DNA of 55,583 nucleotides, from IMG/VR virus record IMGVR_UViG_3300028197_000011, positions 1-55,583 of that record; one strand, 5' to 3'. Under the pieces are notes generated by a model. It was not told where the DNA came from, searched no databases, and saw only the letters and a program-made list of their open reading frames with translations. Positions 33,387-49,015 of this stretch are shown here, one piece after another. How positions within the stretch are numbered: the first letter of the stretch is position 1; each line of letters starts with the position of its first letter. The DNA is from a virus. Taxonomy: Duplodnaviria > Caudoviricetes. Made by a program: the position numbers and the translations under genes.

Positions 33387-34178
33387 ATGCCAGCTACTAT
33401 CACATTTTATGGAAATCAAAAGTTGAGCGATTCTCAGGACTTGCTAGATCATAATACTGGCAGTGGTATTGGTTTTTTTGGCAGTAGTTTTGGAGTTCCA
33501 GTTCCCCTGACTGAATCTCAGCAGACTACATGGGTCACAGATGAGCTTGGTAGAGAAACTGGAAATCAGCTTAACAACAATCAATACGTAACTGAGGGTG
33601 ATACTACAGGCTTGGGAACGGGTGAGCAAGGTACTGTTAAAATTAATGGAGCTGATCCTTTAAATATTAGCAGATTACCAAATCATAAATCAACTTTAAA
33701 CATTAGATTTGAGTATGATGAACCTGTAGTTTGTAATCAACCTACCATTGTTATATATGATAGAAGCACCATTGAAAACCACGCTGTAGACGTTATTACA
33801 TATGTTTATGAGTGTAGACATCCACAATCAGAAGAAAGTGCCGCAAGTTTATCTCACAGAGCTAAAGGTACATTTACTTGGACTACATTTAACCCCAGAG
33901 CAAGTGATAAACCTACACCTATGTTGTTAACTAATTCCCCCGGACCTAGCGGACTTAATAGTAGTCCAGCAGATACGGCTGGAAGTTATGGTGCTTATGT
34001 AGACTCAGAAATGACAGCGATTGGCAACGGCTTAACCAGAGACGATTTTAATAAAGAAGACGTTGGATATTTCATGAGGCACGATTGGTTTATATCTCTT
34101 AGTTCTTCACCAATTGAGATTGGACAAAAAGCATCTTATGGCCTCTACTTCACTGTAGATTATTTGCCACAGGCATAA
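33387..34178 (+). CDS. Hypothetical structural protein (263 aa)
   Basis: ORF with ggag SD; beta-strand-rich; last gene of the + block. Confidence 0.6.
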   Translation: MPATITFYGNQKLSDSQDLLDHNTGSGIGFFGSSFGVPVPLTESQQTTWVTDELGRETGNQLNNNQYVTEGDTTGLGTGEQGTVKINGADPLNISRLPNHKSTLNIRFEYDEPVVCNQPTIVIYDRSTIENHAVDVITYVYECRHPQSEESAASLSHRAKGTFTWTTFNPRASDKPTPMLLTNSPGPSGLNSSPADTAGSYGAYVDSEMTAIGNGLTRDDFNKEDVGYFMRHDWFISLSSSPIEIGQKASYGLYFTVDYLPQA

Positions 34179-34203
34179 AAAGAGGGGGCATTTCTGCCCC
34201 CTC
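34177..34203 (-). terminator. Intrinsic terminator at the convergence point of the two blocks
   Basis: Perfect 9-bp stem gagggggca-tttc-tgccccctc. The A5 run on its left gives a U-tract on the - strand. Confidence 0.8.
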
Positions 34204-34206
34204 GTA

Positions 34207-34260
34207 ATAGAGATAACAATCTGAATCTAGAATAAACTAGTTAATGTTTTAAATCTCTAT
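34207..34260. other. Conserved hairpin element, copy H3
   Basis: atagagat-aaca-atctgaat-ctag-aataaa-ctag-ttaa-tgtt-ttaa-atctctat; same architecture as the copies at 47306 and 47366. Confidence 0.8.
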
Positions 34261-34261
34261 G

Positions 34262-34291
34262 TTTAAACTAGGTTATGATGCGAACCTCTAT
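34262..34291. repeat. Half copy (right arm) of the hairpin element
   Basis: tttaaa-ctag-gtta-tgat-gcga-acctctat aligns without gaps to the right half of H1-H3. Confidence 0.55.
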
Positions 34292-34620
34292 TCCATAGCC
34301 TTGGTCTTTGGGTTCCACTTGAGCCAGCCATTATCTGGTAGCCATGTGTCGCCATCCTTACGCTTGGGAAACAGACCTCCACCCTTCTTCATAGAGCCAA
34401 AAGCAAGTTTGGCCCCACAGTCTGCACATCGTAGTTCATAGTATTCATTTTCGTCCACAGTTCTAACTACAAATCTTAGGTTCTCAGAACCACACTTTCC
34501 ACATTTACTTTCTTCAAAGACTTCTTGAAATCTTGAGATTTGAGTAAACACTTCTCTGTGCGTATCTGCTTCAAACTCTGCTGTAATCCTGTTATTTGCT
34601 GTTGTATAGTTTAGCTTCAT
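34288..34620 (-). CDS. Zinc-ribbon hypothetical protein (110 aa)
   Basis: Likely start MKLNYTT after ggag; CGKC and CADC motifs. Confidence 0.7.
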   Translation of the reverse strand: MKLNYTTANNRITAEFEADTHREVFTQISRFQEVFEESKCGKCGSENLRFVVRTVDENEYYELRCADCGAKLAFGSMKKGGGLFPKRKDGDTWLPDNGWLKWNPKTKAME

Positions 34621-34621
34621 C

Positions 34622-35377
34622 TTATCTCCACTCTTGATTATATCCAGTAATTTCACTTGGAATAGTACTCTTGTCACGTTGATATTCATTGAGACGATCA
34701 ATGATTTCGCTGGCGACCTTCTTTGAAATTTTACGATTATTATCTACTTTAAATATATCTTTTAGTAGTTTTGCTCCATCTATATTTAACTGTTTACATT
34801 TAATGTCTATAAAGTTATATTGCGCATCACTCATCCTTGCGGATTCATCAAATTCCCCAGCGCTGCTACTATTTTGCTTGGATAGATCGCGTACAATTTT
34901 TGCAGTATCTTTCTTTGTTAACTCTTCTGCTGCTACACCCTTGATCTTTAGAACTTTTCGTAAAGCTCTAGCTTCTGCTCTTGTGCTAGCAATCGCAACG
35001 GCGAAAGCGCAGAACATGTCATCTGTGTTTCCCTCCCAAGAGTCTGCTACTTCTGAGCATCTTAAACCATTAACAAATTCTATCGTAAAAATAACAGTTG
35101 CTCTACCGTGATGGTCGTCTCTATCTGTAGGCTTTACCCACGTTGGACCACTAAACGACATCGGCCCCAGAACAATTTCAGAAACCCTCCTAAGACCAGT
35201 TACGAGAGGATGACCATTCATTAGCTCATCTTCCTGAAACAAGGTCATAGCGTAATCATGCCACTCTGGTGACAACATAGAAGGAGCATCTTCAAGTACC
35301 ACGTTTTTCACTGATGTGTCAGTATTTGATGGCGTATCTAATGATTCCATACCATCAAACAAATTCTCTTCATTCAT
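34622..35377 (-). CDS. Rad52/Sak-like single-strand annealing protein
   Basis: ATVIFTIEF...EVAD...AVAIASTRAEARALRKVLKI...AEEL pattern; gagga SD before MNEENLF. Confidence 0.55.
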   Translation of the reverse strand: MNEENLFDGMESLDTPSNTDTSVKNVVLEDAPSMLSPEWHDYAMTLFQEDELMNGHPLVTGLRRVSEIVLGPMSFSGPTWVKPTDRDDHHGRATVIFTIEFVNGLRCSEVADSWEGNTDDMFCAFAVAIASTRAEARALRKVLKIKGVAAEELTKKDTAKIVRDLSKQNSSSAGEFDESARMSDAQYNFIDIKCKQLNIDGAKLLKDIFKVDNNRKISKKVASEIIDRLNEYQRDKSTIPSEITGYNQEWR

Positions 35378-35385
35378 ATTTATCC

Positions 35386-36156
35386 TCATGCTTCTAGTTC
35401 AATATATCTACTGGATTTAGATGGAAATACTTTTTCCATACCGTGTAACAAATCAATCAACTTGTTCTTCAACTCTTCCTGCGCACTTAAGCACACAGAA
35501 TCTGAAAGGTGCTTTACTCTTATTATAGCAAATCCTTTGCTTAAAATCAACCCCGTCTTGTTAGAATCTGCTTTAATTTGTTTCCTAAGTTTTTCTTCCC
35601 CCCAAATTGGCAAAAAATGCGAAGGACCATCTACTTCTATAATACATTTTATCTTTGGTAAGTATAGATCTATTTCAAGATTTTCGTTTGGTATTAAATT
35701 CTTTTTGTGTTTTTGTATATTCAATCCTGTTCTAGATAGCTCTTCGTACAAAAACCTCTCTAGTTTAGAACCTTCTTTTCCAGCTTTCTGTATAGCTTTA
35801 ATTGCTAGACTTTGCATATTCTGTTTATCTTGAGCTGTCATATTTGACCATCTTACTTTAGCTTGTTTAACATGTTTATTATATTCTTCATCACTTATAT
35901 TATCCCAGTATTGTTTTAAAGAGCTACTTATTTTAAGTTTCTCTTCCTTACTTCTTTTTTTTCCTTGAGTTGGAATTTTAGCAATTCCTTTTTTGATTGC
36001 ATTCTTCTGCGCTGTACTTTTATCGTTAATCTGAACCCCGTTCTTTAATAAAATTCTTCTAATCTTATTGGGGTACGTATTTAAAAACTTGGCTATCTCG
36101 TATGTACTCATATTTTCTTTTTCGTACATGTTTACTATATCTGTTGTGTTTTTCAT
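35386..36156 (-). CDS. HTH/NUMOD3 plus Vsr/DUF559-type endonuclease (homing-endonuclease-like)
   Basis: N-terminal HTH (STYEIAKFLNTYPNKIRRIL), NUMOD3-like GKKRSKEEKLKISSSL, catalytic-type EIDLYLP...IEVDGPSH. Confidence 0.7.
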   Translation of the reverse strand: MKNTTDIVNMYEKENMSTYEIAKFLNTYPNKIRRILLKNGVQINDKSTAQKNAIKKGIAKIPTQGKKRSKEEKLKISSSLKQYWDNISDEEYNKHVKQAKVRWSNMTAQDKQNMQSLAIKAIQKAGKEGSKLERFLYEELSRTGLNIQKHKKNLIPNENLEIDLYLPKIKCIIEVDGPSHFLPIWGEEKLRKQIKADSNKTGLILSKGFAIIRVKHLSDSVCLSAQEELKNKLIDLLHGMEKVFPSKSSRYIELEA

Positions 36157-36160
36157 AATG

Positions 36161-36586
36161 TTAACCTAATTTATTTTTGAGGAACTCATCTATTGTTATC
36201 CCGCTACTTTGAAATATTCTTTTAGATTTCTCTACTACGTTTTCGTTGTCACAAACTATCTGTATATCACTATCATGTTTACTATATTCAAATAATCTTA
36301 CTATATCCACACCTTGTCCTATATAAAGTATCGCCGTGTCTATATTATTTTTAATAGATCTAGCATATATTATATCATTGACTGTGAAGCATAGCAAAAC
36401 TCCTGAAAAAAACGACATCTCAGCTATACCAAAAGTGCCAAAAGGAACTCCAGCGTTAACCTGAAAGTCTGCAAACATAGAAACATCTAAGTTTTTATAT
36501 TCTTGTTTAGCTACAGTCCCCACATTGGCAGCTGCCGACACAAACTCTGTAGCAGGGTGAAGTGCAAAGCCTAAACTAATTCCCAT
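36161..36586 (-). CDS. Hypothetical protein in the glycan cluster
   Basis: 141-aa ORF with aggag SD. Confidence 0.6.
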   Translation of the reverse strand: MGISLGFALHPATEFVSAAANVGTVAKQEYKNLDVSMFADFQVNAGVPFGTFGIAEMSFFSGVLLCFTVNDIIYARSIKNNIDTAILYIGQGVDIVRLFEYSKHDSDIQIVCDNENVVEKSKRIFQSSGITIDEFLKNKLG

Positions 36587-36595
36587 ACTTAACTC

Positions 36596-37348
36596 CTATA
36601 TAAAGTGATTCTCTTGTTCCAAGCATAATGATACATAGAAATAAAATCTTTCTAATGCGTGTGACATATCTCCATCTGGTCTATAGTGAGATGGAAAAAA
36701 ATTTTCATGAATACACGAGTGCGCTAAAGACAAAACCCTTTTATCTATTAGAAACATAGTCCCCGACGTAAATTTAAAGTTAAGATTATCTCTTTTTATT
36801 AAGCCATGTTTTTCATACATTATATATTGAAGCTCTCTTAACCATATCAAAGTCTGCCTGCATAATACCACTAAGTGTTTTTGGTCAAATCTTAATACCT
36901 TGTCAAGATTAATTAACTCTTCTTCGCTCTTTAATGATTCTAGTCTTTTAGGATGCTTTGAAGATACTAGACCAGAAGTTTCATCGTTTATTAATGAGTT
37001 AACTTTTTTCTCTTGTTCTATCAGAGGGTCTACTATTTGATCAATCCATTCGAGCTTATCGTTGCTTTTATCATGAGCGTAAAAGACCCAATCCTTATTC
37101 TCTTTATTTGTTTTATAAGATGCAAAAAATCCATTTTGATCTGTACCTTTATTTGGAACGTATACAGTTTTTACATCACAAAAATTATCATGTGCAAAAT
37201 CTAGTATAGCATCATTAGACTCTGAATCATGTATTAATGAAATGTTTATACGTCCCTTCCAATAGGGGCTAAGTTTTTTTAATAAGTATAATGAAGAATC
37301 TTCATACCAGAGATGTAGATGGACTTCTATTTTTTCTTGATTTAACAT
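36596..37348 (-). CDS. Rhamnan synthesis protein F (RgpF)-like protein
   Basis: VHLHLWY, PNKGTD, AHDKS, SGTMF and DGxxSHALER match RgpF-family motifs. Confidence 0.7.
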   Translation of the reverse strand: MLNQEKIEVHLHLWYEDSSLYLLKKLSPYWKGRINISLIHDSESNDAILDFAHDNFCDVKTVYVPNKGTDQNGFFASYKTNKENKDWVFYAHDKSNDKLEWIDQIVDPLIEQEKKVNSLINDETSGLVSSKHPKRLESLKSEEELINLDKVLRFDQKHLVVLCRQTLIWLRELQYIMYEKHGLIKRDNLNFKFTSGTMFLIDKRVLSLAHSCIHENFFPSHYRPDGDMSHALERFYFYVSLCLEQENHFI

Positions 37349-38199
37349 TAAATTTTTTGTGGTAATTGTGATAAAATAGTTTTTACTCTATTAATATTCG
37401 TGTGCTTGTCTTTAGTGTTCTTCTTTAGTTTTGAGAAGTCTTGTATCTTATTTTTATTGTTATAGTCTAAACTTTCTTCTATTTTAAAAATCTTTTTAAT
37501 CATATCGTCTATTTTTTCTGCTTTATTTTCAGAATAAAAGTAAACTTTATCACAGTAGATTATGGATTGAAAAAAGAATTCGTCTAAACCATCGTCTAAA
37601 TTTGTAAATAATACTTGATTATAATTTTGAATTAGATTTGCATAGTGAAATCCAGCAGGAACTTTTAAATCTCCGAGACCTTCAGTGGGAAATATATGAT
37701 AATGATCTTCATTTATTTTAATATCTAATTTATCTAGACTTTCTTGACCTTCAGTCACTATTAAGGTGTCAAATTTTTTAGACCACTTCTTCGACTCGTC
37801 TAACAGTCCCAGCTCAACAGCTGGCAACAAAGGGATAGCATTATCTGGCATAAATAAAACTTCTTTGTTCACAGTTTTATTGTAAAATACTCTATGATTT
37901 ATATTCATATTCTTTAAAGCTTCAAACGTATTTTTAGAAGAACCATATTTAGCTCCATCGTTACATATAAAAAGTGGTATATTTTTTTCTGAGTCCTGAA
38001 TATAGCAAACTGTATCTCTTGATAGTGTTTCACAATGGGTAATGTAAGCATCTGGGTTAAATGAGTCTAGCATTTCAAACATTGTTTGAGAAAAATCGTT
38101 AAGTAATACCTGATGATCTCCAACTTCTTGAAGTCCTCTAGCTAAATACTCAGGTTGAGAAATTGAATCTGTAGAATATTTATCAATTACTAACTTCAT
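37348..38199 (-). CDS. Hypothetical protein, possibly a degenerate GT-B glycosyltransferase
   Basis: 283-aa ORF; FNPDAYIT and C-terminal KHTNINRVKTIL resemble GT-B/CgeB-like termini. Confidence 0.45.
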   Translation of the reverse strand: MKLVIDKYSTDSISQPEYLARGLQEVGDHQVLLNDFSQTMFEMLDSFNPDAYITHCETLSRDTVCYIQDSEKNIPLFICNDGAKYGSSKNTFEALKNMNINHRVFYNKTVNKEVLFMPDNAIPLLPAVELGLLDESKKWSKKFDTLIVTEGQESLDKLDIKINEDHYHIFPTEGLGDLKVPAGFHYANLIQNYNQVLFTNLDDGLDEFFFQSIIYCDKVYFYSENKAEKIDDMIKKIFKIEESLDYNNKNKIQDFSKLKKNTKDKHTNINRVKTILSQLPQKI

Positions 38200-38935
38200 A
38201 CTTACTCCTAACCTTATTATATGTCTTAATGTTCTTAATTTTCATTATAGTTCCTGTATTTGATTTTGGCTTAATGTTATGTTTATTTGTTATCTTGTTC
38301 ACTGCTTCAAATAAAAACTTCTTTCTAAAAGATTTATCACTAAGTATTTTTTCTAAATCTAGTATAGTTTCTTTTCCATTAAAAAAAATGATTTCAGACC
38401 AAGGCTGACTTGCTCCGTAGCAGAAAAATTCTACAGAGTCTTTGCTAGCATTAACTCCTATTTCCAAACTTTCATCTGAATACTCATTAAGTATTGCGAA
38501 TGAATTAGCAAAATCTAACCCAGTGAATACTTTTGGCTCAAACAATAAGCTACCATCTATGAATAATATCTTATCATTAAATGTATTGTGCAGGCATAGC
38601 CTAGCACTCTCACATGAATTTGTATTTTCGTAGTCTTTGTTTTCTACAATTCTTATGGTATTGTCTTTATACTTATTCATAATGTAACTATAAACTGCGC
38701 TTGTAGAACTACCTACAGATATAATAAGTTCATAGTTAGTAAATTTTTTATTTATCGCATTTATTTGTTTGTCTATTAATTTTTGTTCTCCAACATCTAT
38801 AAAAAGTGTAGGGCTGTGTCGTTTCATTCTGTTTATAGTCTGATCGTGAAGAAGAACTATAGTAATAAATTCTTCATACTTTCTAGGTCGTCTTTTAACA
38901 GGTTGTTTTTTATTCTTCTTAGCAGATGATCTCAT
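38183..38935 (-). CDS. Nucleotidyltransferase-like protein (LicC/MobA fold), probably degenerate
   Basis: IVENKDYENTNSCES and ILFIDGSLLF are present; the N-terminal LAAGxGxR loop is replaced by LLHDQTINR. Confidence 0.6.
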   Translation of the reverse strand: MRSSAKKNKKQPVKRRPRKYEEFITIVLLHDQTINRMKRHSPTLFIDVGEQKLIDKQINAINKKFTNYELIISVGSSTSAVYSYIMNKYKDNTIRIVENKDYENTNSCESARLCLHNTFNDKILFIDGSLLFEPKVFTGLDFANSFAILNEYSDESLEIGVNASKDSVEFFCYGASQPWSEIIFFNGKETILDLEKILSDKSFRKKFLFEAVNKITNKHNIKPKSNTGTIMKIKNIKTYNKVRSKYEVSN

Positions 38936-39363
38936 GCTAACCTTACTCCATTAAATACAAGAAAATATTCTCTTTGTTCTATTTTTTCTATGTTTACATT
39001 TCTACGAGCCAACAACTTCTTAACCTCAGACAAAGCTATGATAGAATTGAGACTAGGCAAGAATTTGTTTAATTGTTCTAGTTGTAAATTTCCAGACGTA
39101 AAGTCAATACATACTCTTTCAAAGTCTGAGATGGAAACGTCAATAGTACCTTTAATCCTAATTTTTGAAATAGATTTATTCAATACCTCTAATGCGTCTT
39201 CTCCACCAATAAGTTGTAAAGCTTCTGATATAATAACTGCATTACAAGAAGATGTTGGCACAGCATCTAGTTCTTTCATGTAGGTTTCTTTGTTTTTTGT
39301 AATGTCTATGTTTGTAAATCCAGACATATGTTTTTTGTCGGAATATGTAATGTGTAGATTCAT
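38932..39363 (-). CDS. Methyltransferase-like protein (degenerate)
   Basis: GFTNIDI...CNAVIISEALQLI...KIRIKGTIDVSISD follows the class I SAM-MTase pattern common in glycan loci. Confidence 0.45.
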   Translation of the reverse strand: MNLHITYSDKKHMSGFTNIDITKNKETYMKELDAVPTSSCNAVIISEALQLIGGEDALEVLNKSISKIRIKGTIDVSISDFERVCIDFTSGNLQLEQLNKFLPSLNSIIALSEVKKLLARRNVNIEKIEQREYFLVFNGVRLA

Positions 39364-39857
39364 TTAAAATATCCTTTATATAAGCTTATAAGTAAATCAT
39401 TAAGTTGATTTGATTCAAATATGTTATTAACAACACAGAGTCCTTGTTTAATTTTCCAAGAATTTAATATTTTATCGGAAGTAAAGATATTCATATCACC
39501 AGCTAATTTATTTACTGCTGATTCAAATTTAGGAGTAATTTCTTGGGGAGGATGGGTAGTAAATACGCATAGTTTAGGTATATCAAAAATTTGAACTATA
39601 GAATCACTGACTTGATTTGTTACGTTGTCATTATCAAAACATATAAGAATGTCATAGCTAATATTAGACATGCCATCACCTTCTGGAAGTTCAAATATAT
39701 TATCTACCTCTCCTGAGTCTTCTATTTTTTCTACTGAAAAAAGATTATTTTTATTAATTAATAGCGCTGTTTCTTTTGTCAAGTGGCAACAAAATAAATT
39801 TAAAACTTCTTTTTGTTGAGACACAACGCTACGTAGCACTGATGAATTTCTATTCAT
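39360..39857 (-). CDS. Hypothetical protein in the glycan cluster
   Basis: 165-aa ORF overlapping both neighbours. Confidence 0.55.
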   Translation of the reverse strand: MNRNSSVLRSVVSQQKEVLNLFCCHLTKETALLINKNNLFSVEKIEDSGEVDNIFELPEGDGMSNISYDILICFDNDNVTNQVSDSIVQIFDIPKLCVFTTHPPQEITPKFESAVNKLAGDMNIFTSDKILNSWKIKQGLCVVNNIFESNQLNDLLISLYKGYFK

Positions 39858-40965
39858 TTAAACTTTCCTTAATCTTATTACCCACCGTATTGTAATTAAA
39901 CTTTTCCCCTAACATATAAGATTTTGTTTTATCTTTTTTATGCCTATTATTATAGTAATATCTCATTGCTTCAGAAACTTTCTTTTCACTGGGATGAAAC
40001 CAAAACTCTGAGCCAGTAAAAATATGATTGAATGCACCATCTTGTTGATTACAAATGTCGTATACTCCATCCACAAGAGTCCCTGACCACTTGTTGTCTG
40101 GGTCTATAAATGTTTTTGGTCCACCCTCATTGCTACATATGGGAGTATTACCAAAGCACATGGCTTCAAAAGATGGAATAGACCAAGCCTCTCCATAAGA
40201 TGGACTAACAAAGCAGTCGCACGAGTAGTGTAAAGATTGTATCTCTTCGTCTGTTACAGGGCTTGTAATAAATCTAATTGCTGGATAGTTCATAGAATCA
40301 TTGTAAAGTCTCATTTCTCGTTGAATATTTACGCACATATTTTGACATTGCTGGTCTAACTCCTCTGGGCCTATATTAAATTTGTTTAGTTTTAATACTA
40401 ATAAAGTATTATCTCTTGGAGAAAAAGTGTGATAATAGCTTCTTATTATGCTTTGTATGTTTTTTCTGTTAGTAACATCCCCTATAAAATAAAATTTAAA
40501 ACAACTTTGATGGCATCCAAAATCAATACTATTATATGATTCTTTATATTTTTCTGTGTTGAAAGTGTGATGTATTGTAGAGACTTTATTTTTTACAAAT
40601 TTTTCTGTATTTTCTTTTAACGTGTCGTTAGGAACCCAAACCTCGTCAACTAAATCCAAAGAACTGTGCCACATATTTTTCTTTGTGTGTATTGTTTCCG
40701 CTTCTAGATAAGCAATATTTTTCTTAAACAAAGAGCTACCTAATATGTGATGAGGCAGAACGTGCTGTATGCAATGCGTGACATCTTCTAAATTGTTTCT
40801 TTCTAGCTCTGTTATTCTGCTGGGTAAACTATAATCTTTATTAGTAAGCTTTATATCCCTACAAACTATTGGTACTCCCACACTATCTATAGCTAGTATA
40901 TGATCTATAGCAGAGTTGGCCCAACCGCTTGATTCTTTGTAATGTCCTATATATAATATTTTCAT
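39850..40965 (-). CDS. Glycosyltransferase family 4
   Basis: VDEVWVP, RKNI and CDCFVSPSYGEAWSIPSFEAM (ExxxxxxxE motif). Confidence 0.9.
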   Translation of the reverse strand: MKILYIGHYKESSGWANSAIDHILAIDSVGVPIVCRDIKLTNKDYSLPSRITELERNNLEDVTHCIQHVLPHHILGSSLFKKNIAYLEAETIHTKKNMWHSSLDLVDEVWVPNDTLKENTEKFVKNKVSTIHHTFNTEKYKESYNSIDFGCHQSCFKFYFIGDVTNRKNIQSIIRSYYHTFSPRDNTLLVLKLNKFNIGPEELDQQCQNMCVNIQREMRLYNDSMNYPAIRFITSPVTDEEIQSLHYSCDCFVSPSYGEAWSIPSFEAMCFGNTPICSNEGGPKTFIDPDNKWSGTLVDGVYDICNQQDGAFNHIFTGSEFWFHPSEKKVSEAMRYYYNNRHKKDKTKSYMLGEKFNYNTVGNKIKESLNE

Positions 40966-42620
40966 TGTATGCCTAACCTATCCCCCCTCTTTTTTTCTAA
41001 TGCGTTCTCTATACTCCTCATTTGCTTTACATATCTATAAGCTATCTCGTAATTGAAAGCTGACTTTTGAATATTACCATCTGAAATCATAGAACTATCA
41101 TTCGCATAAGTTCCAGCAGTAGAAGACGTACTGAATCCATAAAGTAAATCTCTTTGTAATTTCTTGTGGAAATAACTATTTATCTTTTCTGGTTTACATA
41201 ATACATTAGATATTAGAAAGTGACTCATGTGATCTGTAGATGAAAAATTTTCTGGATTCAACATCGGGTGAGATTCTTTAATGTTTAAAGGAGATTTCCA
41301 AGTTAATTCTTCCGGCAATATTTCTACAGAATCAAAATACTTCTCCCAAACTGCCCCACTTTTATCCCACTGATAATGTTTCAAAAAGTTTTGCTTGATA
41401 TTAAATCCTACCTTATTTCTCATGGCTGATGGCTTACTTAAGAAATCAATAATTTTTTCACACGCTGATTCATTGTTGGGTACAGCCCTCATGCATCCTG
41501 TTTCCATCTCTTTATATAAGCTCTTTGTCTCAAGAATTATTCCTTCTAGTTTTCTTATAACACTTGTCATAGCTGAATAATCTATAGATGCTACCGGAAC
41601 TCCTCCAGCTGCTGCCTCTACTTGTGGTAGCCCAAACCCCTCTGAGTTAGCATATTGCACATACAAATCAAAACAATTTATAATTGTAGATAGATTTTCA
41701 TATGTAATTCCGTTCTGAACGTTGGACATAACAGCGTCTACTTCGTTCGTAAAAGGAGAAATAGTCCTTGGGCCTTGAAAGAAAGAGGCAAAGGGCTTGG
41801 AAGTTTTTTTACAAACATATGTAAACATAACATGAGAAGATAGCTTATGCTCCTGTAATAACTGTGGTAAATCCCACCCCATATCTGGATAACTGGTGTG
41901 GCAGTAAAGCAAATAATTTTCAGGATCTTCAACCTTGTCAAGCATCATTCTAAAAGTTTTAAATAAATCGGGATATAATTTTCTTCTTTGATTTCTCATT
42001 ACTGTGCCGAGTATTTTTTTATCTTCTGGTATATTCATATTTATTCTGCACTGAGTCTTGTCTTTTTCCACAGAGTAAGCAGGGTGTGCTGAAGGTGGTG
42101 CAGAACCTACAATATTAATAGAGTTAAAACTTTGTTTCTTTAGCAATTCAGATGCCCAATCAGAGTATGTTAGGCAAGCATCTGCTTTTTTGTAAGCTTC
42201 TATCCACTGGTGCGCTTGAGGTTCAGCGTCTACAGTGGGCATAATACACCATTTATAAAAGTTTCTGTATGGAGATCTCTCTTCAAATTCCATCATCCAG
42301 AAATCTCTAATATCACATACTATATCAGGCATAAAGTCTAAACAAGCATCGTGAAAGTAATATTCTCCAAACTGATTAGTGTATTGAGAATTGTATTTTC
42401 TTTTTTCATCTTCACTAGCTGTCTTTGTCAATGCAGCAGGATAATATTTCCAAGGAATTGATGCTGATCTTGGATCGTCAGCAGACCCGTAGGAAGACAA
42501 CTCAGCAATTTCATACTTACCAGTGTCAAGTAAGTAATTTAAGATTTCTCTAGAGTAGGTAGCGTATCCCGTATTAAGAAATGTCGCTTCCGTGCAAAAC
42601 AAAATTCTTTTTTTTCTCAT
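40962..42620 (-). CDS. Glycosyltransferase family 4
   Basis: RNQRRK and FDLYVQYANSEGFGLPQVEAAAGG; start MRKKRIL by ATGA overlap. Confidence 0.9.
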   Translation of the reverse strand: MRKKRILFCTEATFLNTGYATYSREILNYLLDTGKYEIAELSSYGSADDPRSASIPWKYYPAALTKTASEDEKRKYNSQYTNQFGEYYFHDACLDFMPDIVCDIRDFWMMEFEERSPYRNFYKWCIMPTVDAEPQAHQWIEAYKKADACLTYSDWASELLKKQSFNSINIVGSAPPSAHPAYSVEKDKTQCRINMNIPEDKKILGTVMRNQRRKLYPDLFKTFRMMLDKVEDPENYLLYCHTSYPDMGWDLPQLLQEHKLSSHVMFTYVCKKTSKPFASFFQGPRTISPFTNEVDAVMSNVQNGITYENLSTIINCFDLYVQYANSEGFGLPQVEAAAGGVPVASIDYSAMTSVIRKLEGIILETKSLYKEMETGCMRAVPNNESACEKIIDFLSKPSAMRNKVGFNIKQNFLKHYQWDKSGAVWEKYFDSVEILPEELTWKSPLNIKESHPMLNPENFSSTDHMSHFLISNVLCKPEKINSYFHKKLQRDLLYGFSTSSTAGTYANDSSMISDGNIQKSAFNYEIAYRYVKQMRSIENALEKKRGDRLGIQ

Positions 42621-42946
42621 GACCACTCCCAATCCTCAAAGTCTGAGTCCTGACAAATATCAAATTCATTAACCCTAAAAATTATAGAATCATTATCCTT
42701 AGAAAGATTTTTTGCAGAAGCCTGTATGGATATTTTAGTACCTTTTTTTGCAAATTTTTCTATGGTCTCTGCGCCAGTGTGCCAAGCTTCGCAGTAGATG
42801 TGTGTTGGTATTCTACTCTTCTCTCCTGTACTTTTCGTTCTCCTGTAATTATATACTACTACCACAAATTCTGCTAGAAGTACACTACCAACGTGAGATG
42901 TTTTTGGGTTTTCTATAAGATACCCAGTAAAACAACAATTATTCAT
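42617..42946 (-). CDS. ssb: Single-stranded DNA-binding protein (short, OB fold)
   Basis: MNNCCFTGYL...CEAW...AETIEKFAKKGTKISI with an acidic tail. Confidence 0.7.
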   Translation of the reverse strand: MNNCCFTGYLIENPKTSHVGSVLLAEFVVVVYNYRRTKSTGEKSRIPTHIYCEAWHTGAETIEKFAKKGTKISIQASAKNLSKDNDSIIFRVNEFDICQDSDFEDWEWS

Positions 42947-42993
42947 ATTCTCTCCTATCTTTGTATATTAGCTTGTACAATGTAAAAAAACAA

Positions 42994-44559
42994 TTAAATT
43001 TCGTGAATTTTATCTACGATAAAGGAAGTGTCATTTTTATTAACGGAACCACAAAATATAAGATTATTTCCTTCATATAATATATATTTATATTTACGCT
43101 TAACACTGGGGAAAATAATTACGCTATCAAGTAAACATGTATCATCTTCTATTGTTAAGAAAGACATAGCCTGACCCTTTGAATCACCTTTAGTTATGGT
43201 ATAGTCAGACATTCTTTGTATGTTTGCGCCAACGCAGATATTCTTTCCTTTCTTTCCGTTTAAGATCTGCTTACAAGTAGTATTAGAGGCTGATGTATCT
43301 GACATTTCTACCCGAGTCATAGTAACGGGACAACCTAAGAATCTAGTTTCTTGATCTATTATCCATCCGGCATCATCATCTAAGTCGTAGGGTGGATCTA
43401 TTAAGAGCTGTATCTCGTTTTCAACAATTTGTTTTCTCTCTACCTTGCTGGTTCCACCGCCCTCTTTCTTTGTTGGAGCTAGGCCGGACAAGCAGTCTAT
43501 AAAGTTCTTCCATTTATATGTGGAATAGTTTTTGTGTAACCAAGCTTGCTCTGCTTTGGTTAAACTTCTGTATATTTCGTATTCGTATAAAGCCTTATTT
43601 CTGCTAATAGAACCATTAAAATCTCTAAAGAATCCAATAGATGCCAATGCTTTGAATGCTGTAGAATTAACTTTAGTAGCAAAAAATAATAGTATCTCCA
43701 CCCAGCTAAACTGCTTTACTTTTTTACTAAGTTCTTTTTCGGATTCTAGCAAAGAAGATATTACTTTGTCCCCAGTTTTTCCTGTTAGTGATTTTATATC
43801 TTTTATTCCAAAGTAAATTTTACCTCTATTGACATTGAATTTTTCTTTATAGTTAATTATACTTGGAGTTCTTGCTTGAATGTCAAACAACTTAGCTTCA
43901 GAAATCAGTTCGTATATCTCTTGATGTGGATCTTGTTTTTCGTTTGCAAAATATAAGTAAGCTAGAAAAAATTCTTTCGTATTATGAGCTTTCTGATAAG
44001 CGCTCCAGTATGAACACACTGCGTAGGATATACTATGTGATTTGTTAAACGCATACCTTGCCGATGCTTGAATCCACCCAAATATTTGTTCTGCCTCTTC
44101 TTTATTTACAATCTTAACCCTTTTAGCTCCAGCAATAAACTTCTTTTTGACCTTAGCCATGAGGTCTGCTTTCTTCTTACCAATAGCTTTGCGTAACTCA
44201 TCTGCTTCTTCAAGATTAAAACCAGCTACTTTTTGAGCAATACGCATGGATTGTTCTTGATATACTAGCACTCCATATGTAGGCAGCAACACATCTTCCA
44301 ATGATTCGTGCAAGTATGTTACTTCTTCACGACCATGCTTACGATCAATAAAGTGTTGGGTCATAGACTTGCCGTCCACGAAAGCTTTTAGACATCCGGG
44401 GCGAATGATAGCAATTAATGCTGACAACTCTTCAATATTATTAGGTGCAAGTTTCTTAGACCATGATTTGCCAAGGTTGCTCTCTAGTTGAAACACACCC
44501 TTAGTTTTGCCTTCTGCAAATAATTTCCAAGTATCCTTGTCGTCATATTCATTTGACAT
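42994..44559 (-). CDS. dnaE: DNA polymerase III alpha, C-terminal half (fingers, HhH, OB)
   Basis: GVFQLES, IIRPG, TYGVLVYQEQ, ADELRKAIGKK, YAFNKSHS and MSFLTIEDDT. Confidence 0.92.
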   Translation of the reverse strand: MSNEYDDKDTWKLFAEGKTKGVFQLESNLGKSWSKKLAPNNIEELSALIAIIRPGCLKAFVDGKSMTQHFIDRKHGREEVTYLHESLEDVLLPTYGVLVYQEQSMRIAQKVAGFNLEEADELRKAIGKKKADLMAKVKKKFIAGAKRVKIVNKEEAEQIFGWIQASARYAFNKSHSISYAVCSYWSAYQKAHNTKEFFLAYLYFANEKQDPHQEIYELISEAKLFDIQARTPSIINYKEKFNVNRGKIYFGIKDIKSLTGKTGDKVISSLLESEKELSKKVKQFSWVEILLFFATKVNSTAFKALASIGFFRDFNGSISRNKALYEYEIYRSLTKAEQAWLHKNYSTYKWKNFIDCLSGLAPTKKEGGGTSKVERKQIVENEIQLLIDPPYDLDDDAGWIIDQETRFLGCPVTMTRVEMSDTSASNTTCKQILNGKKGKNICVGANIQRMSDYTITKGDSKGQAMSFLTIEDDTCLLDSVIIFPSVKRKYKYILYEGNNLIFCGSVNKNDTSFIVDKIHEI

Positions 44560-45229
44560 ACAAATTGCCGTCTGCAAACGCCTTATCTAGTTCAATGTTT
44601 TGGTAAACTGCACGATGAGTCTTAAGCAACTTTATAAATATATTAGCCGTATCTTTAACATCTTGCAATGCATCGTGAGCATTTTCTTTGCTCAGTCCCA
44701 TACGCTCCCTAAGAGTATCCATACTGATAGACCTAATGCTTGGATCACCCTCAGTCCACATGTGCATATTATCCATAACGTCACACTTGTGGATCTTACT
44801 AAAGATCTTTTGTTGCTGCCTAGCGTCATCAAAAGGTCCATATTCTTTACATAATCTATTAATAATAATCATATCAAAGCCAATAATATTAAAACCAACG
44901 GGGATAGGATTAAAGAATGGATCTTTTTTCCAATTATATTTATCCACAAAGGTGCAAAACTTTCTCCACACTGACTTAAGCGTTGGGGCTTTTGCCAAGT
45001 CTTTTCTATTTTTCCCCGTGACTTTTAATGCGCCCTCTTCTATAGGGTCAAGACCGGCAGCAATAGCCGCATCGTCATTTAGTATTGGTCTAATCTCACT
45101 ATTAAAAGATCCTTTCATAGCAAGGTTGCGACCGTCTAGTGCGATGGCAGCAATTTGAGTGGGTTGAGTATTATGAGGATTACGACTTCCTGTTTCAAAA
45201 TCAAATACAATAAAATCTCTGTTAGCCAT
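44549..45229 (-). CDS. DEDDh 3'-5' exonuclease (DnaQ/epsilon-like)
   Basis: ExoI VFDFETG, ExoII GFNIIGFD, ExoIII AHDALQDV. Confidence 0.9.
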   Translation of the reverse strand: MANRDFIVFDFETGSRNPHNTQPTQIAAIALDGRNLAMKGSFNSEIRPILNDDAAIAAGLDPIEEGALKVTGKNRKDLAKAPTLKSVWRKFCTFVDKYNWKKDPFFNPIPVGFNIIGFDMIIINRLCKEYGPFDDARQQQKIFSKIHKCDVMDNMHMWTEGDPSIRSISMDTLRERMGLSKENAHDALQDVKDTANIFIKLLKTHRAVYQNIELDKAFADGNLYVK

Positions 45230-45231
45230 TG

Positions 45232-45723
45232 TTAGTCCTTCTTTTCTAGTTTTTCTAGTTCATTAATGCTTAAATTATAGCAGTCTGCTTTAACCTTAAA
45301 ATTATTACTTGGGTCTATCTCGCCTTTCTTGAGTTTTCTGGCTTGCTTAAAATACTCAGCCTTGTCCTTTTGTCCTAATACCCACGCTTTAACAGGTCTA
45401 TCACCTTGAAATTGTACTCTTACAAAAAAGTAAATATCACATCTTTGTTTTGTATTATAAGCAGCTACTGAACAGTCATAGTTTGGTTTAGGAGGACTTG
45501 TGCATCGCTTGGTTTTTACATCATATGTTTTACCATCACTTACAATGTCAAAATCATAAGTATTGGCTTTAACTCCACCCAGATAATCCAAAGCTATCAA
45601 CTCTCCCACAAAACCAGCAACGTTACCTTCACCTTTGGTTATAGAATTTTTAAGCTTGCCTAAATCTCTAGCCATGCTTCTGGCTTTAACTCTCATATAA
45701 TCTGTAACTTTAACTTCTATCAT
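45232..45723 (-). CDS. Small PD-(D/E)XK-fold nuclease-like protein
   Basis: GELIA...YDFDI...YDVKTK arrangement. Confidence 0.55.
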   Translation of the reverse strand: MIEVKVTDYMRVKARSMARDLGKLKNSITKGEGNVAGFVGELIALDYLGGVKANTYDFDIVSDGKTYDVKTKRCTSPPKPNYDCSVAAYNTKQRCDIYFFVRVQFQGDRPVKAWVLGQKDKAEYFKQARKLKKGEIDPSNNFKVKADCYNLSINELEKLEKKD

Positions 45724-47281
45724 TAGTCAATTCCTTAATTTTCATTAGCTTGTCTAGTAGATTAATTCCTAGAACGTCAAATTTTACATGACCTAGCGCT
45801 TCTAGATCAGTCATCTCTAATCCTGCTATCTTTTCTTCTGCGCCTTTCTGTGTTACCATTGGACACACGTTTTTTAATTTATCTTTAGATATTACAACGC
45901 CAGCAGCGTGTTTGCCCTGAGTTTTAAACGTGCCTTCAATATCTATTGCCTGCTTGAAGTATTCAGCATAATCTCCCTCAAGCTTTCCCTCGTCTGTTAT
46001 GTGACAAAAATCTCTTAAGTCATCAGAGCGATTCAATAGTGACCATCTAATGATTGACCTGTCTTCGTCTTCCATGTCTGCAAGTTGATCTGATATGTCT
46101 GCCTCGTTTGGTATGCTCTTTGTTATAGCATTCATCTCACTAAAAGAACAAGCCTCATTTATACGAAGCACTTCTTTTATTGCGCTGCGTCCTTGGAGTC
46201 TGCCAAATGTAATCATCTGGCTAACATGTTCATTTCCATAAGTTGCTTTTAGATAATCTATAACATCGTCTCGACGCTTACCGGGAACGTCCATGTCAAT
46301 ATCTGGTAGAGAAACGTGACCGCCCGTATTACGACCAGCATTATAAAATCTTTCAAACAACAGATCGTGTTCTACCGGATCTATCTTGGTAATACCTACT
46401 AGATATGATATTAAACATCCAGCAGCAGAACCTCTGCCGGGACCAGCTAGACATCCCATATCTTTTTCTATATGTCTAATAATATCTTGAACAATTAAAA
46501 AATATCCAAACAGATCTGCATTTCTAATAACTTCTAATTCTTTGTGGAACCTGTCTCCGTATAGCTTTTGTTTATCTTTATCTTTTCCAACTTTTGGTTT
46601 TAATAATTCTGTGTATCCTTCACGCGCCATCTTTGTTAAGTAATCTTCTTGAGACATACCCTTGGGGCATACAAACTTTGGCAGCATGGGTGGATTTAAA
46701 ATTTCATATTCTTCACAATTTTCGTATACGTATTGTAGTTCTCTATCGGCCTTGCCTTCTACTATACATTTATTATCATTAATAAAGTAATCTAGAATAT
46801 CACTTTCTAATTCTTTTTTCCTAATCTTGTTTTGTATTTTAGGTAATGTTGTCTTGAGTGCGGAACATAATAAAACTCTATGTAATACTGCTTGTTCTTT
46901 CTTTGCGTAATATGATGGTTTAATATTATCATTAGACTTGCTGATTGCTATTAAATTGTTTTTGCTTATAATTTCTTTAGCAACTTCAGATACAATATTC
47001 CCACTGTCATCTGTAGAGGATACCATCTGTATAAGATCATACCAGCCATCTTTGTTCTTAGCGTACACTGTGGTATTGTCAAATGAGCAACCAATTATTG
47101 GCTTGATGCCAACTTTTTTGCAAGCTTGATGGAAAGATACTGCGCCTGATATAGATTTATAATCTGTAATTCCACAAGCTGGATAGTCATTATCAGAACA
47201 AATTTTTGCCAGTTCGTGTGGCTTAGAAAATCCTTTTAGCAAACTATAATGTGTAAAATTCTTCAATGGAAACCAATTCAA
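45710..47281 (-). CDS. dnaE: DNA polymerase III alpha, N-terminal half (reduced PHP, palm, thumb)
   Basis: THYSLLKG, KPIIG, GPGRGSAAG, LLFERF, PDIDMD, HAAGVVI and KFDVLG; TTG start after gaggagg. Confidence 0.92.
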   Translation of the reverse strand: MNWFPLKNFTHYSLLKGFSKPHELAKICSDNDYPACGITDYKSISGAVSFHQACKKVGIKPIIGCSFDNTTVYAKNKDGWYDLIQMVSSTDDSGNIVSEVAKEIISKNNLIAISKSNDNIKPSYYAKKEQAVLHRVLLCSALKTTLPKIQNKIRKKELESDILDYFINDNKCIVEGKADRELQYVYENCEEYEILNPPMLPKFVCPKGMSQEDYLTKMAREGYTELLKPKVGKDKDKQKLYGDRFHKELEVIRNADLFGYFLIVQDIIRHIEKDMGCLAGPGRGSAAGCLISYLVGITKIDPVEHDLLFERFYNAGRNTGGHVSLPDIDMDVPGKRRDDVIDYLKATYGNEHVSQMITFGRLQGRSAIKEVLRINEACSFSEMNAITKSIPNEADISDQLADMEDEDRSIIRWSLLNRSDDLRDFCHITDEGKLEGDYAEYFKQAIDIEGTFKTQGKHAAGVVISKDKLKNVCPMVTQKGAEEKIAGLEMTDLEALGHVKFDVLGINLLDKLMKIKELTNDRS

Positions 47282-47305
47282 TCTTTCCTCCTCAATTTAT
47301 AAGTT

Positions 47306-47357
47306 GCCAGATAGCAACCTGAATCTAGAATGAACTAGGTGATGCTTTGAATCTGGC
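47306..47357. other. Conserved hairpin element, copy H1
   Basis: gccagat-agca-acctgaat-ctag-aatgaa-ctag-gtga-tgct-ttga-atctggc. Confidence 0.8.
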
Positions 47358-47365
47358 TTGTATTC

Positions 47366-47419
47366 TAACGGATGGTGTGTTGAAGCTAGACTAAACTAGT
47401 TAACAGCATGAATCCGTTA
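47366..47419. other. Conserved hairpin element, copy H2
   Basis: taacggat-ggtg-tgttgaag-ctag-actaaa-ctag-ttaa-cagc-atga-atccgtta. Confidence 0.8.
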
Positions 47420-47521
47420 TTATTTTGACGTTGCAGGCATGGGTCTGCGTATGGGTTCTTCCTGTTTTGGTCTATGCTCTCCGGGGCGTGTCAATGGAAA
47501 GCTCTTTACCTCTTCGCTCAT
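47420..47521 (-). CDS. Unannotated 33-aa Pro/Arg-rich peptide MSEEVKSFPLTRPGEHRPKQEEPIRRPMPATSK
   Basis: Translated by hand. aaagga SD 8 nt before the ATG; overlaps the 3' end of the PAP2 gene in the same way as other coupled genes here. Confidence 0.45.
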   Translation of the reverse strand: MSEEVKSFPLTRPGEHRPKQEEPIRRPMPATSK

Positions 47522-48173
47522 CGTCAAGTCCTTTCATTATATCATACAATTTCTTTGTTGCAACTTTTGAAGCCTTGTTATCTGATGGATAGTGGACACC
47601 TTGTAATATTCTAGCTAAAGCACAGTAATCAGACAACTTAAAAAATACTTCTTTATGTACTGGATACTGGTCTGCAAGTATATGAGCTGCTAGCTCTGAG
47701 TATATAGTATGACCACTAGGATATGAGGGGGTGTGGTGAGTATCTGTATAGAGAACATTAATATCTAAATTATAATAAGGAGCTAATTGCTCTGGTCTAG
47801 CTCTATTATAATAATATTTAAGCGCAAATTGATATTGTTCTATTACATTGTAATAGCTATTAAACTTAGATCTGGGAAAAGTTAGATCATTCTTCTTTAA
47901 AAAATCACTAAATATATTAATAGGATCTTTATCCACAGATATTATCAAATCTACTTCTTTAGAAGTCCTAGACTTAGTTGCTTTAGATATTTCTTGTAAT
48001 TCTTTAACCGTTGTTAAACTGCTATTCTTATGGTGAGGCGGTATAATAGTTTTAAATTCTATATCTAAAAGAGATATATCATCATCATAATCCATCTTAT
48101 TATTAAGATAGGTAACTTCATCTACCGACTTCTGAGAGTCTATAATTGCTGCTACTTTATTTATTAAGCTCAT
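47472..48173 (-). CDS. PAP2-superfamily acid phosphatase/haloperoxidase-like protein
   Basis: Motifs KxxxxxxRP (KYYYNRARP), PSGH and RxxxxxHxxxD (RILQGVHYPSD). Confidence 0.88.
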   Translation of the reverse strand: MSLINKVAAIIDSQKSVDEVTYLNNKMDYDDDISLLDIEFKTIIPPHHKNSSLTTVKELQEISKATKSRTSKEVDLIISVDKDPINIFSDFLKKNDLTFPRSKFNSYYNVIEQYQFALKYYYNRARPEQLAPYYNLDINVLYTDTHHTPSYPSGHTIYSELAAHILADQYPVHKEVFFKLSDYCALARILQGVHYPSDNKASKVATKKLYDIMKGLDDERRGKELSIDTPRRA

Positions 48174-48378
48174 ATTTTCTCTCGGTAAATACTTTGTCTA
48201 ATCTTTGAACTAACTTAGTGCCAGCTCTGCGTCTAAAACATGGTAGTAAACCATGTATACATAAATATACACCAGCTCTGATACAACAGAACCCATGACA
48301 TGTAGCAAACTTTAAATGCTGCCAATAGGTCATATTATTTTCTTTTAAATGTTCATTCCATCTTTGATAAAAATTCAT
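48157..48378 (-). CDS. DUF6356-like small protein (73 aa)
   Basis: HLKENNMTYWQHLKFA...IHGLLP; start reassigned to MNFYQR immediately after the upstream stop. Confidence 0.65.
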   Translation of the reverse strand: MNFYQRWNEHLKENNMTYWQHLKFATCHGFCCIRAGVYLCIHGLLPCFRRRAGTKLVQRLDKVFTERKYELNK

Positions 48379-48379
48379 T

Positions 48380-49015
48380 CTACCACGCCTTGCAAGACCA
48401 ATAACGCGCTTTCCATTTTGGACCGGGATTTGCACAGTTATGTCTAGCTCTAAAAGACTTTCTTCTTGCCGGATTATCCTTCTTGATAGACATATTAGGA
48501 TCGCCAAAGTTTACTTTAACAACATTGCCAGAGCCATTTTTGACATAAACGCTTCTTTTCTTAGGCCCGTCTGGAGTTAAGAATGGTTTTCCAAGCTTTA
48601 CTTTTTTCCCCTGATATTCTGCCGCCATACCCTTACATCCACACCCATCTGATTTTTTACCTTTTTTCTTACGTAATATTTCAAAGTCTTCTTCAGTTAC
48701 TTTACCATCGTTATTTACATCAAGGGATTTTTTTTGTTCTTTAGAAGGCTCTGACTGAGCTTTTTTCCAAGACTTTGGATCTGGCCTGTCTTTATCACCT
48801 TTTTTTGCTGGTTTATAATTCTTGCCTTCTCGTTCTTTCTTCTTGCGAATATTTTCCCACAGTGAAGCGGCATCATATTCTCCTTCATCTTCTCCACAAT
48901 CTTCATATTCAGCTTCTGTGGGTAGATAAAAATTTTCTTCTGTTAATTCTTCTGTAGAACCATAAGTTTGAAAATTATATTCTTCGTCAGTTTCTTCTAT
49001 AAAAGACATAATCAT
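48380..49015 (-). CDS. DUF6321-like phage protein with an EF-hand-like loop
   Basis: VNFGDPNMSIKKDNPARRKSFRARHNC...ARYWSC and DVNNDGKVTEEDF. Confidence 0.65.
   Translation of the reverse strand: MIMSFIEETDEEYNFQTYGSTEELTEENFYLPTEAEYEDCGEDEGEYDAASLWENIRKKKEREGKNYKPAKKGDKDRPDPKSWKKAQSEPSKEQKKSLDVNNDGKVTEEDFEILRKKKGKKSDGCGCKGMAAEYQGKKVKLGKPFLTPDGPKKRSVYVKNGSGNVVKVNFGDPNMSIKKDNPARRKSFRARHNCANPGPKWKARYWSCKAW

Follow-up and report, generated by a model that had tools for sequence, protein, structure and literature searches.

The hairpin that occurs three times between early genes of an uncultured marine phage contig is a real and new family of structured repeats, with an unexplained hypervariable feature in the form of two three-base bulges. 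The analysed stretch, hereafter the window, comprises an entire viral contig from IMG/VR (55,583 bases, estimated completeness 35%). The sequencing runs that carry it are DNA runs labelled as marine or seawater metagenomes, and no RNA run is listed for 44000-49000. A megablast search returned no close relative among isolated phages, and the best tblastn match of the DnaE protein was 32% identical. A first-pass annotation made from the letters of the window had described the hairpin near 34.2 kb (H3) as a third copy, in the same orientation, of an element present twice near 47.3 kb (H1 and H2), and both the sequence and the covariance-model score bear this out. Its observation is confirmed and its interpretation partly supported; the 2-bp middle helix, the two-fold symmetry, the hypervariable triplets and the origin of a neighbouring half copy by insertion are points that it did not contain. 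With a covariance model, clear helices and 92 distinct copies, the element would join the small set of well-supported structured elements from uncultured marine phages.

Table 1. Positions of the hairpin units, their parts and the adjoining genes in the window
Feature	Position	Strand	Remarks
H1 unit	47304-47359	+	P1 GCCAGAT/ATCTGGC; ends 22 nt from the dnaE-N start codon at 47281
H2 unit	47365-47420	+	P1 AACGGAT/ATCCGTT; 61 nt start-to-start from H1
H3 full unit, model columns 1-56	34206-34261	+	Given on the strand that bears TGA, which is antisense to the - strand genes on either side
H3 helices	P1 34208-34214/34253-34259; P2 34217-34218/34245-34246; P3 34225-34230/34237-34242; loop 34231-34236	+	Window positions
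H3 variable triplet 1	34219-34221	+	ATC; bulge between P2 and the invariant TGA
H3 variable triplet 2	34247-34249	+	TTT; second hypervariable bulge
31-nt insertion	34241-34271	+	Relative to the orthologous single-copy loci of G001 and G002; supplies the present right arm of H3
Ancestral right-arm remnant	34272-34291	+	Main part of the half copy; TGA to CGA, ATC to ACC
Intrinsic terminator of the - strand block	34182-34203	-	GAGGGGGCA GAAA TGCCCCCTC then TTTTTAT; 4 nt beyond H3 along transcription
Zn-ribbon protein, last - strand gene	34288-34701	-	137-aa ORF from TTG
Split DnaE	42994-47281	-	PHP and NTPase part 45710-47281; finger/HhH part 42994-44577
DnaE N-terminal part (PHP and NTPase domains)	45710-47281	-	Directly downstream of H2-H1 in transcription sense
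PAP2-family gene	47472-48173	-	Upstream of H2-H1 in transcription sense

A covarying three-helix hairpin and its family

Read on the strand that bears its TGA motifs, the 56-base unit runs P1 (7 bp), rA, P2 (2 bp), nnn, TGA, P3 (6 bp, consensus ATCTAG/CTAGAT), a loop AnTnAA, P3', rA, P2', nnn, TGA and P1', with 23 nt in each arm, 15 bp and two asymmetric loops. All helices of this three-helix fold are supported by covariation. P1 occurs as 25 arm types that have no more than the inner GAT/ATC in common, which 83-90 of 92 copies retain. The short P2 helix is paired in all 38 distinct copies compared, with four pair types at each of its two positions, and P3 shows compensatory changes from G-C to A-T and to CTGG/CCAG and CTCG/CGAG, with its top replaced in two copies. 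Watson-Crick pairs fill 1331 of the 1380 pair cells in the 92 distinct copies. For a set of 33 distinct copies, standard pairs made up 97.6% of the pair cells, falling to 21-36% when the partner columns were slid, and the covariation score of 0.594 was reached by none of 500 shuffles (0.183 in shuffles). The TGA columns carry about 2 bits of information and the six n columns 0.0 bits, and no pairing of these six columns was found with anything, including one another. Even among phages with diverged flanking genes, about 40 of the 56 positions hardly vary, and orthologous copies retain locus-specific stems. Both arms carry the core GAT-rA-NN-nnn-TGA-ATC, which gives the middle of the hairpin a near two-fold symmetry, as would suit a protein dimer.

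Within the window, the core CTAGNNNNAACTAG occurs exactly three times (34227, 47325 and 47386), always on the + strand, against an expectation of 0.12, and none of 100 shuffles reached three occurrences. An unfiltered run of the covariance model over the whole window, with a model built from 23 copies of which three came from the window and 20 from related contigs, scored H1 at 72.6, H3 at 64.9 and H2 at 64.2 bits (E 7e-17 to 1.4e-14), and its next-best match reached 14.2 bits (E 0.62). The first-pass annotation had named two checks on the pairing, namely its presence in homologous loci and folding energies better than those of shuffles. The homologous loci covary strongly, and the energy comparison for H3 was weak: folded alone at -10.7 kcal/mol, it gave marginal z values of -1.8 and -2.3, and 11 and 6 of 200 shuffles did as well. 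The case for structure therefore rests on comparison with relatives.

The pooled set of 92 distinct copies comes entirely from contigs of related, uncultured marine phages. Viral contigs were scanned twice for the motif, which gave 34 and 67 loci; most single matches were due to chance, and the real members were separated by the model. In this way, seven copies at four loci were recognised in G001 (119.9 kb, 75% complete), five copies in G003, four in G007, three each in G002 and G009, two each in G006 and G010, and one copy plus a weak second in G008. In two unrelated complete phage contigs (G004 and G005) the model found nothing below an E-value of 0.2. A strict pattern identified 49 metagenome loci, and the model placed 81 matches in 48 of them; the remaining locus (L154) was left out of the model run and taken to be the same 77,567-base contig as G007. 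One metagenome contig with copies is 160 kb long. No match to the element came up when 185,579 species genomes of bacteria and archaea were scanned twice by pattern, and a search of the whole window against Rfam gave none at the gathering score (best weak matches at most 21.5 bits, against gathering scores of at least 35). Linkers of 10-12 nt beside the units (CTTGTATTGTG and CTTTGTATGGTG) are also conserved, for example at 47352-47366 of the window and in loci L013, L032 and L014. Their presence on both sides of the unit in some loci indicates a repeated block longer than the hairpin, with a period of 62-70 nt.

Placement between replication genes and possible roles

Copies are found only between genes of early or replication blocks, singly or in tandem sets of two to three, and within each contig they have one orientation. 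Both neighbouring genes run opposite to the modelled strand for 27 of 30 copies, the remaining three being H3-type copies at a convergent junction. Among the 81 metagenome matches, 46 had both neighbours opposite, 26 had one opposite and none visible on the other side, nine had one neighbour on the same strand and none had both. Several copies overlap the upstream stop codon by 5-6 nt, and the copy nearest the following gene stops 17-22 nt short of its start codon in 10 of 17 arrays. In three phages, the H3-type copy is flanked by a stop codon and the intrinsic terminator of the - strand. The more distant G007 also has the element ahead of dnaE, with another gene upstream of it, G006 carries one copy between dnaE-N and the exonuclease gene and another after recA, and copies follow ssb in G007 and G008. 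As had been noted in the first reading of the window, the element fills real intergenic gaps of the - strand block, and the same holds for the main gaps of the G001 replication block. The accompanying argument against pure SD occlusion also stands, since copies occur before a start codon as well as between a stop codon and a terminator. The three roles put forward there, namely RNA processing or stability, a small-RNA array and a DNA-level site, are all still candidates. The proposal that the two loci bracket a 13-kb block did not hold up as anything special, given the number of copies and loci in G001 and the copies that other lineages carry at other intergenic points, and contigs of four DNA runs covering 33800-47800 contained no joint between 34.2 kb and 47.3 kb.

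At the H3 locus, the left arm ATAGAGAT (34207-34214) pairs with ATCTCTAT (34253-34260) and encloses CTAG-AATAAA-CTAG. The orthologous loci of G001 and G002 were aligned to the window; in each, a single copy lies between the corresponding terminator and stop codon. Against them, the window carries the 31-nt insertion of Table 1, the exact placement of which is ambiguous because AACTAG is repeated. The half copy described earlier exists as a right-arm-only copy, AACTAG GTTATGATG CGA ACCTCTAT, which ends at 34291 and overlaps the TAG stop of the Zn-ribbon gene (34288-34290, - strand). Its nature turned out differently, in that it is the ancestral arm of the unit, stranded by the insertion, and it differs from the G001 arm at two of 39 aligned positions (TGA to CGA and ATC to ACC). 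This second right arm could also pair with the H3 left arm, as had been proposed, with one A.C mismatch, and the 91-nt stretch spanning both folds at -19.3/-19.6 kcal/mol by using the long-range pairing of the left arm with the distal arm. Tandem Repeats Finder called no repeat at H3 and the remnant arm. H3 itself departs from the consensus in a T.T mismatch within P3 and in a TAA in place of TGA (34250-34252), an A at the middle column of this motif being seen in one of 38 distinct copies. On the basis of this TAA in the present arm and the altered distal arm, the H3 locus looks slightly decayed. In one weakly supported contig of run X1 (depth 3.5, side 23), 34201-34287 is replaced by six other letters, so that H3 and the remnant arm are gone; this contig would be a variant without the element at the H3 site.

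Copy number does vary across relatives, a point that had been proposed for checking, with one copy against 1.5 at the H3 site and two to three at another. This variation, the differing sites between lineages and the X1 contig are in line with a selfish or relic repeat, similar to REP or MITE sequences, that spread through tolerated intergenic sites and is functionless for the phage. The REP and BIME elements of enterobacteria are imperfect palindromes in transcribed intergenic regions and at operon 3' ends, often in tandem. The present element resembles them in its imperfect palindromes, in its intergenic position within operons or at 3' ends and in its frequent tandem arrangement, but all its copies are in direct orientation, it has neither a GTAG motif nor a RAYT gene, and it belongs to one phage lineage only. 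A Y1/RAYT transposase (Y1_Tnp) was found in none of five contigs. The near-invariance of some 40 positions despite diverged flanking genes, the locus-specific stems kept by orthologous copies and the absence of the element from the bacterial and archaeal genomes scanned speak further against a functionless repeat, which we consider improbable.

Folding energy is without preference for either strand (means of -16.4 and -16.6 kcal/mol; 20 versus 17 copies; Wilcoxon p 0.80). Mismatched cells comprise 24 of the A.C type, which would be G.U on the gene-sense strand, nine G.T and 16 others; counted as separate events, these are roughly 15, 8 and 8, and one subfamily shows four different A.C changes and no G.T. 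The mismatches favour the gene-sense strand no more than slightly. It is on the antisense strand alone that the conserved unpaired bases resemble a tandem G.A next to a bulge. Set against the kink-turn and box C/D pairing rules, the antisense internal loop reads nnnUGA opposite rA beside a helix, approximately a bulge followed by tandem G.A. Departures from these motifs are a bulge that would measure 4 nt, a frequent A at the 2n position, a polarity opposite to that of box C/D and a canonical stem of just 2 bp that serves both turns; no L7Ae or Nop protein was found.

A lack of clear strand preference in mismatches or energy would be expected if both strands fold, as in a DNA-level hairpin or cruciform that is extruded when the DNA is replicated or transcribed and that binds a dimeric protein of replication or recombination, for example in priming, loading or fork control. 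Such a site would also agree with the confinement of copies to replication and recombination blocks, beside dnaE, the exonuclease gene, ssb and recA, and with the co-orientation of all copies in a contig. The gradient of substitution rates described below (free unpaired bases fastest, P2 intermediate, P1 almost none) could reflect base exposure. Nevertheless, the copies take their orientation from the genes in every case that allows a judgement, and their short distance from start codons points towards mRNA. The triplets are near uniform in composition and not depleted in C as deamination of exposed DNA would make them, and no partner protein was identified, so that we regard a site acting in DNA as unlikely.

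Promoter-like sequences were recorded at some copies. A sigma-70-like site, TTGCCA-16-TAGAAT (10 of 12), lies inside H1 at 47304-47331 on the strand antisense to the genes and was the only such site at H1; none was seen at H3. In most copies, conserved bases of P3 and the loop make up a -10-like TAGAnT. In the gene sense, TATAAT/TATAAA is present 4 nt after the dnaE-proximal copy. The PeSLs of T4-type phages combine a sigma-70 promoter with a simple stem-loop (PMC4122927; see also PMC2839356), and they share with the present element the character of conserved intergenic repeats in the early regions of large phages. A composite promoter and terminator cassette of this kind would account for an intergenic repeat in early regions and for the boxes after the dnaE-proximal copy and on the opposite strand of H1. 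It is very improbable here, as the -35 position falls in a covarying stem, no -10 is common to the other copies, no U tract follows the hairpin in the gene sense, an H3-type copy would fire straight into a terminator, and a promoter needs no three covarying helices; compared with PeSLs, the element has no promoter boxes in common and folds into three helices. A promoter for a phage polymerase is likewise unlikely, given that G001 has a sigma factor at the head of its late block and no recognisable RNA polymerase.

Fold, conservation and placement inside operons together make a cis-acting RNA hairpin the plainest account. We tentatively favour, with a probability of roughly 30%, an operon-embedded RNA hairpin that is bound by a dimeric protein and controls mRNA processing or stability. 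H1, H2 and H3 would be transcribed as part of early or replication operons, RNA rather than DNA would be the active form, and each arm, taken in the gene sense, would read GAU-UCAnnn-NN-Uy-AUC. The near-two-fold-symmetric three-helix hairpin would then be the recognition site of a dimeric protein, for which a double-strand-specific endoribonuclease, such as host RNase III, and a phage-encoded RNA-binding protein are candidates. By punctuating the polycistronic mRNA, the hairpin may set its processing, its segmental stability and possibly the translation of neighbouring cistrons, and the copy before the terminator may act on the 3' end, for which lambda sib is the 3'-UTR precedent.

Five early intergenic stretches of T7 fold as a lower stem, an internal loop and an upper stem with shared sequence, and they are said to be the RNase III sites described by Dunn and Studier in 1983. 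Like the present element, the T7 hairpins are repeated, are about 50-60 nt long and lie between cistrons of one-directional operons, and they have conserved internal-loop sequence, variable stems and a position just upstream of the next ribosome site. The element differs from them in its opposed 6+2 internal loops, its 2-bp middle helix, its near two-fold symmetry and its hypervariable bulges, and we know of no tandem sets of two to three units, such as the element forms, among the T7 sites. Cleavage by RNase III in particular is opposed by the two 6+2 internal loops, which would kink the helix and are atypical of RNase III substrates; a phage RNase III gene was found in none of five contigs. 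Sites of the T7 type are hairpins of some two helical turns that contain an internal loop and lie in a polycistronic mRNA; the element shares the position inside operons, and its geometry is atypical. An mRNA hairpin controlling processing or stability also has against it the energies without strand preference, the roughly eight G.T events tolerated on the other strand and the likeness of the conserved unpaired bases to a familiar RNA motif on the antisense strand alone.

Hypervariable triplets and likeness to guide RNAs

What is unusual about the element is a rigid symmetric scaffold around two three-base bulges whose rate of change is about 20 times that of silent sites. A single base separates two contigs over 819 nt, and it falls within a triplet. 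Across 21 orthologous pairs with flanks 1-6% diverged, 90 of 126 triplet positions differed (71%), as against 272 of 8784 among all flank sites (3.1%) and 188 of 2933 in the fastest codon phase (6.4%). For 15 orthologous pairs in which reading frames were inferred from stop-free stretches, 62 of 90 triplet positions (69%) and 90 of 1071 four-fold degenerate sites (8.4%) differed, a Jukes-Cantor ratio of about 21. The pairs compared share sequences and so lack independence. Column by column in 20 pairs, the triplet columns differ in 11-17 pairs, the purine columns of rA in 5 and 8, those of P2 in 2-3, with compensation, and those of P1, TGA and ATC in 0-2 each. The triplets are 49% G+C (254 of 516) and near uniform in composition, against 37% for the window. 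Their combinations are almost all different, with 85 distinct triplet pairs in 86 copies and a single pair common to different stem types. Gene conversion or exchange between copies was considered as the source of triplet change and rejected, since the one shared pair compares with an estimated chance value of about 0.9. Run contigs are identical to the window over the units (H1 and H2 in X1, X2 and X4; H3 in X1 and X2), which indicates that the triplets change over evolutionary time and not per infection.

Control of mRNA processing or stability by a hairpin leaves the triplets unexplained, as a cis-regulatory hairpin predicts neutral rather than faster-than-neutral change. Possible readings of the triplets are targeted diversification, guide-like specificity segments or a structure-dependent mutation hot spot. 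Each triplet together with its two P2 bases makes a 5-nt variable segment, and the order of parts is then stem, motif, short variable segment, motif, inner hairpin, motif, variable segment, motif and stem, to which a putative dimeric phage protein would bind. This order is reminiscent of the stem-loop guide RNAs of TIGR systems, and the element may be a minimal, dispersed relative of these or another C/D-like guide, with two programmable 5-nt segments.

According to the two TIGR reports (Faure et al. 2025, PMC12045711; Xu et al. 2026, 10.64898/2026.09.09.750476), stem-loop tigRNAs have palindromic stems that are conserved only beside the motifs and diverge from unit to unit of an array. Two short motifs each occur twice, the spacers may be separated by a secondary hairpin, pseudo-C2 symmetry fits a protein dimer, and the systems are mostly viral. 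The spacers are given there as 8-12 nt (PMC12045711), and CUU at the base of the tigRNA stem as the processing site (10.64898/2026.09.09.750476). Features of stem, repeated motif, inner hairpin and symmetry are all present in our element, including a palindromic stem and a motif pair repeated twice (rA...TGA), and the two kinds of unit further share their tandem arrangement, their occurrence in phages and fast-changing variable segments. In the gene sense, the conserved blocks of the element start with U and end with UCA, which may be compared with UG...CCA in TasR. Its variable segments are hypervariable between close relatives and are not shuffled between copies.

Several features set the element apart from the tigRNA units of these reports, and we regard a relation of this kind as unlikely. 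The variable segment is 5 nt and not 8-12 nt, and two of its five bases always pair with the other segment, a structural constraint not reported for spacers. The units are dispersed inside operons, with one to three per site at no fewer than four sites more than 10 kb apart, and they stay at orthologous sites. CUU is not general at the stem base; it occurs only in copies of the GCCAGAT type, and there only on the antisense strand (CTT after P1). Matches of the variable segments elsewhere in the same sequence were at chance level, with one distinct site in the window and one in G001. The contigs, none more than 75% complete, yielded neither a Tas gene nor a domain of the Nop, L7Ae or IS110 type: Pfam Nop matched in none of four contigs and IS110 DEDD in none of five, L7Ae had no match in the contigs searched, and no weak Nop match appeared among 22 unassigned proteins at E-values up to 5. 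Pfam may miss Tas proteins, for which the TIGR authors needed a custom profile, and PF23667, which the TIGR paper lists, is an unrelated CUB family in the profile library that we used and is uninformative on Tas.

A broader form of this idea, with somewhat slim prospects, is that a stripped-down guide-RNA-like module is processed from the mRNAs of replication genes and shows two diversifying 5-nt segments to a putative dimeric phage protein, or else that the triplets are sites of a targeted diversification of a kind so far undescribed in phages. In the former case, the module would be akin to TIGR stem-loop tigRNAs or to box C/D RNAs, with dispersed units and short spacers. Targeted diversification or guide-like specificity, if true, would be of wide interest for RNA-guided systems and for phage gene control.

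Neighbouring genes and the rest of the window

The + strand of the window holds giant structural genes, beginning with an open frame of more than 2857 aa followed by frames of 4625, 685, 480, 1380, 1122 and 263 aa. In the first two of these (2-22334, the first being open at the contig start), the sole recognised domain is an FG-GAP repeat. This region also contains tandem repeats, with a 24-nt period at 4304-4495 and 4555-4773 and repeats of 135-327 nt at 6899-7606. The replication block occupies the - strand from 34288 to the right end and encodes DnaB, a Toprim primase, a dNMP kinase, a PD-(D/E)XK nuclease, glycosyltransferases, PAP2, the split DnaE, SSB and more glycosyltransferases, together with a homing-endonuclease-like gene and the Zn-ribbon gene. 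The DnaE halves are separated by a 163-aa ORF of no assigned function and an RNase T-like exonuclease gene (44549-45229).

Two small Zn-ribbon proteins lie beside arrays of the hairpin. One, a Zn_ribbon_8 protein of 110 aa (L141:16170-16502, equal to G001 116170-116502), starts 17 nt after a triple array, and the other, the last - strand gene of the window, ends inside the H3-type copy. An alternative ATG of the latter at 34620 would give 110 aa, the length of its G001 orthologue. The two proteins were considered as paralogues and this was rejected, as they are unrelated. A 256-aa neighbour was considered as TasH and also rejected, being a homing-endonuclease-like protein instead; neither this nor a 255-aa neighbour matched a solved structure by sequence. 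At the end of the late block of G001, 88089-91718 (L140) comprises about 3.6 kb with gaps of 1330, 626 and 383 nt, without a long ORF and without a hairpin copy. Finally, a 141-aa protein (window 54920-55345; G001 112999-113424) weakly matches the N-terminal domain of PvuRts1I-like restriction enzymes, and this match, together with the many glycosyltransferases and the dNMP kinase, hints at modified DNA.
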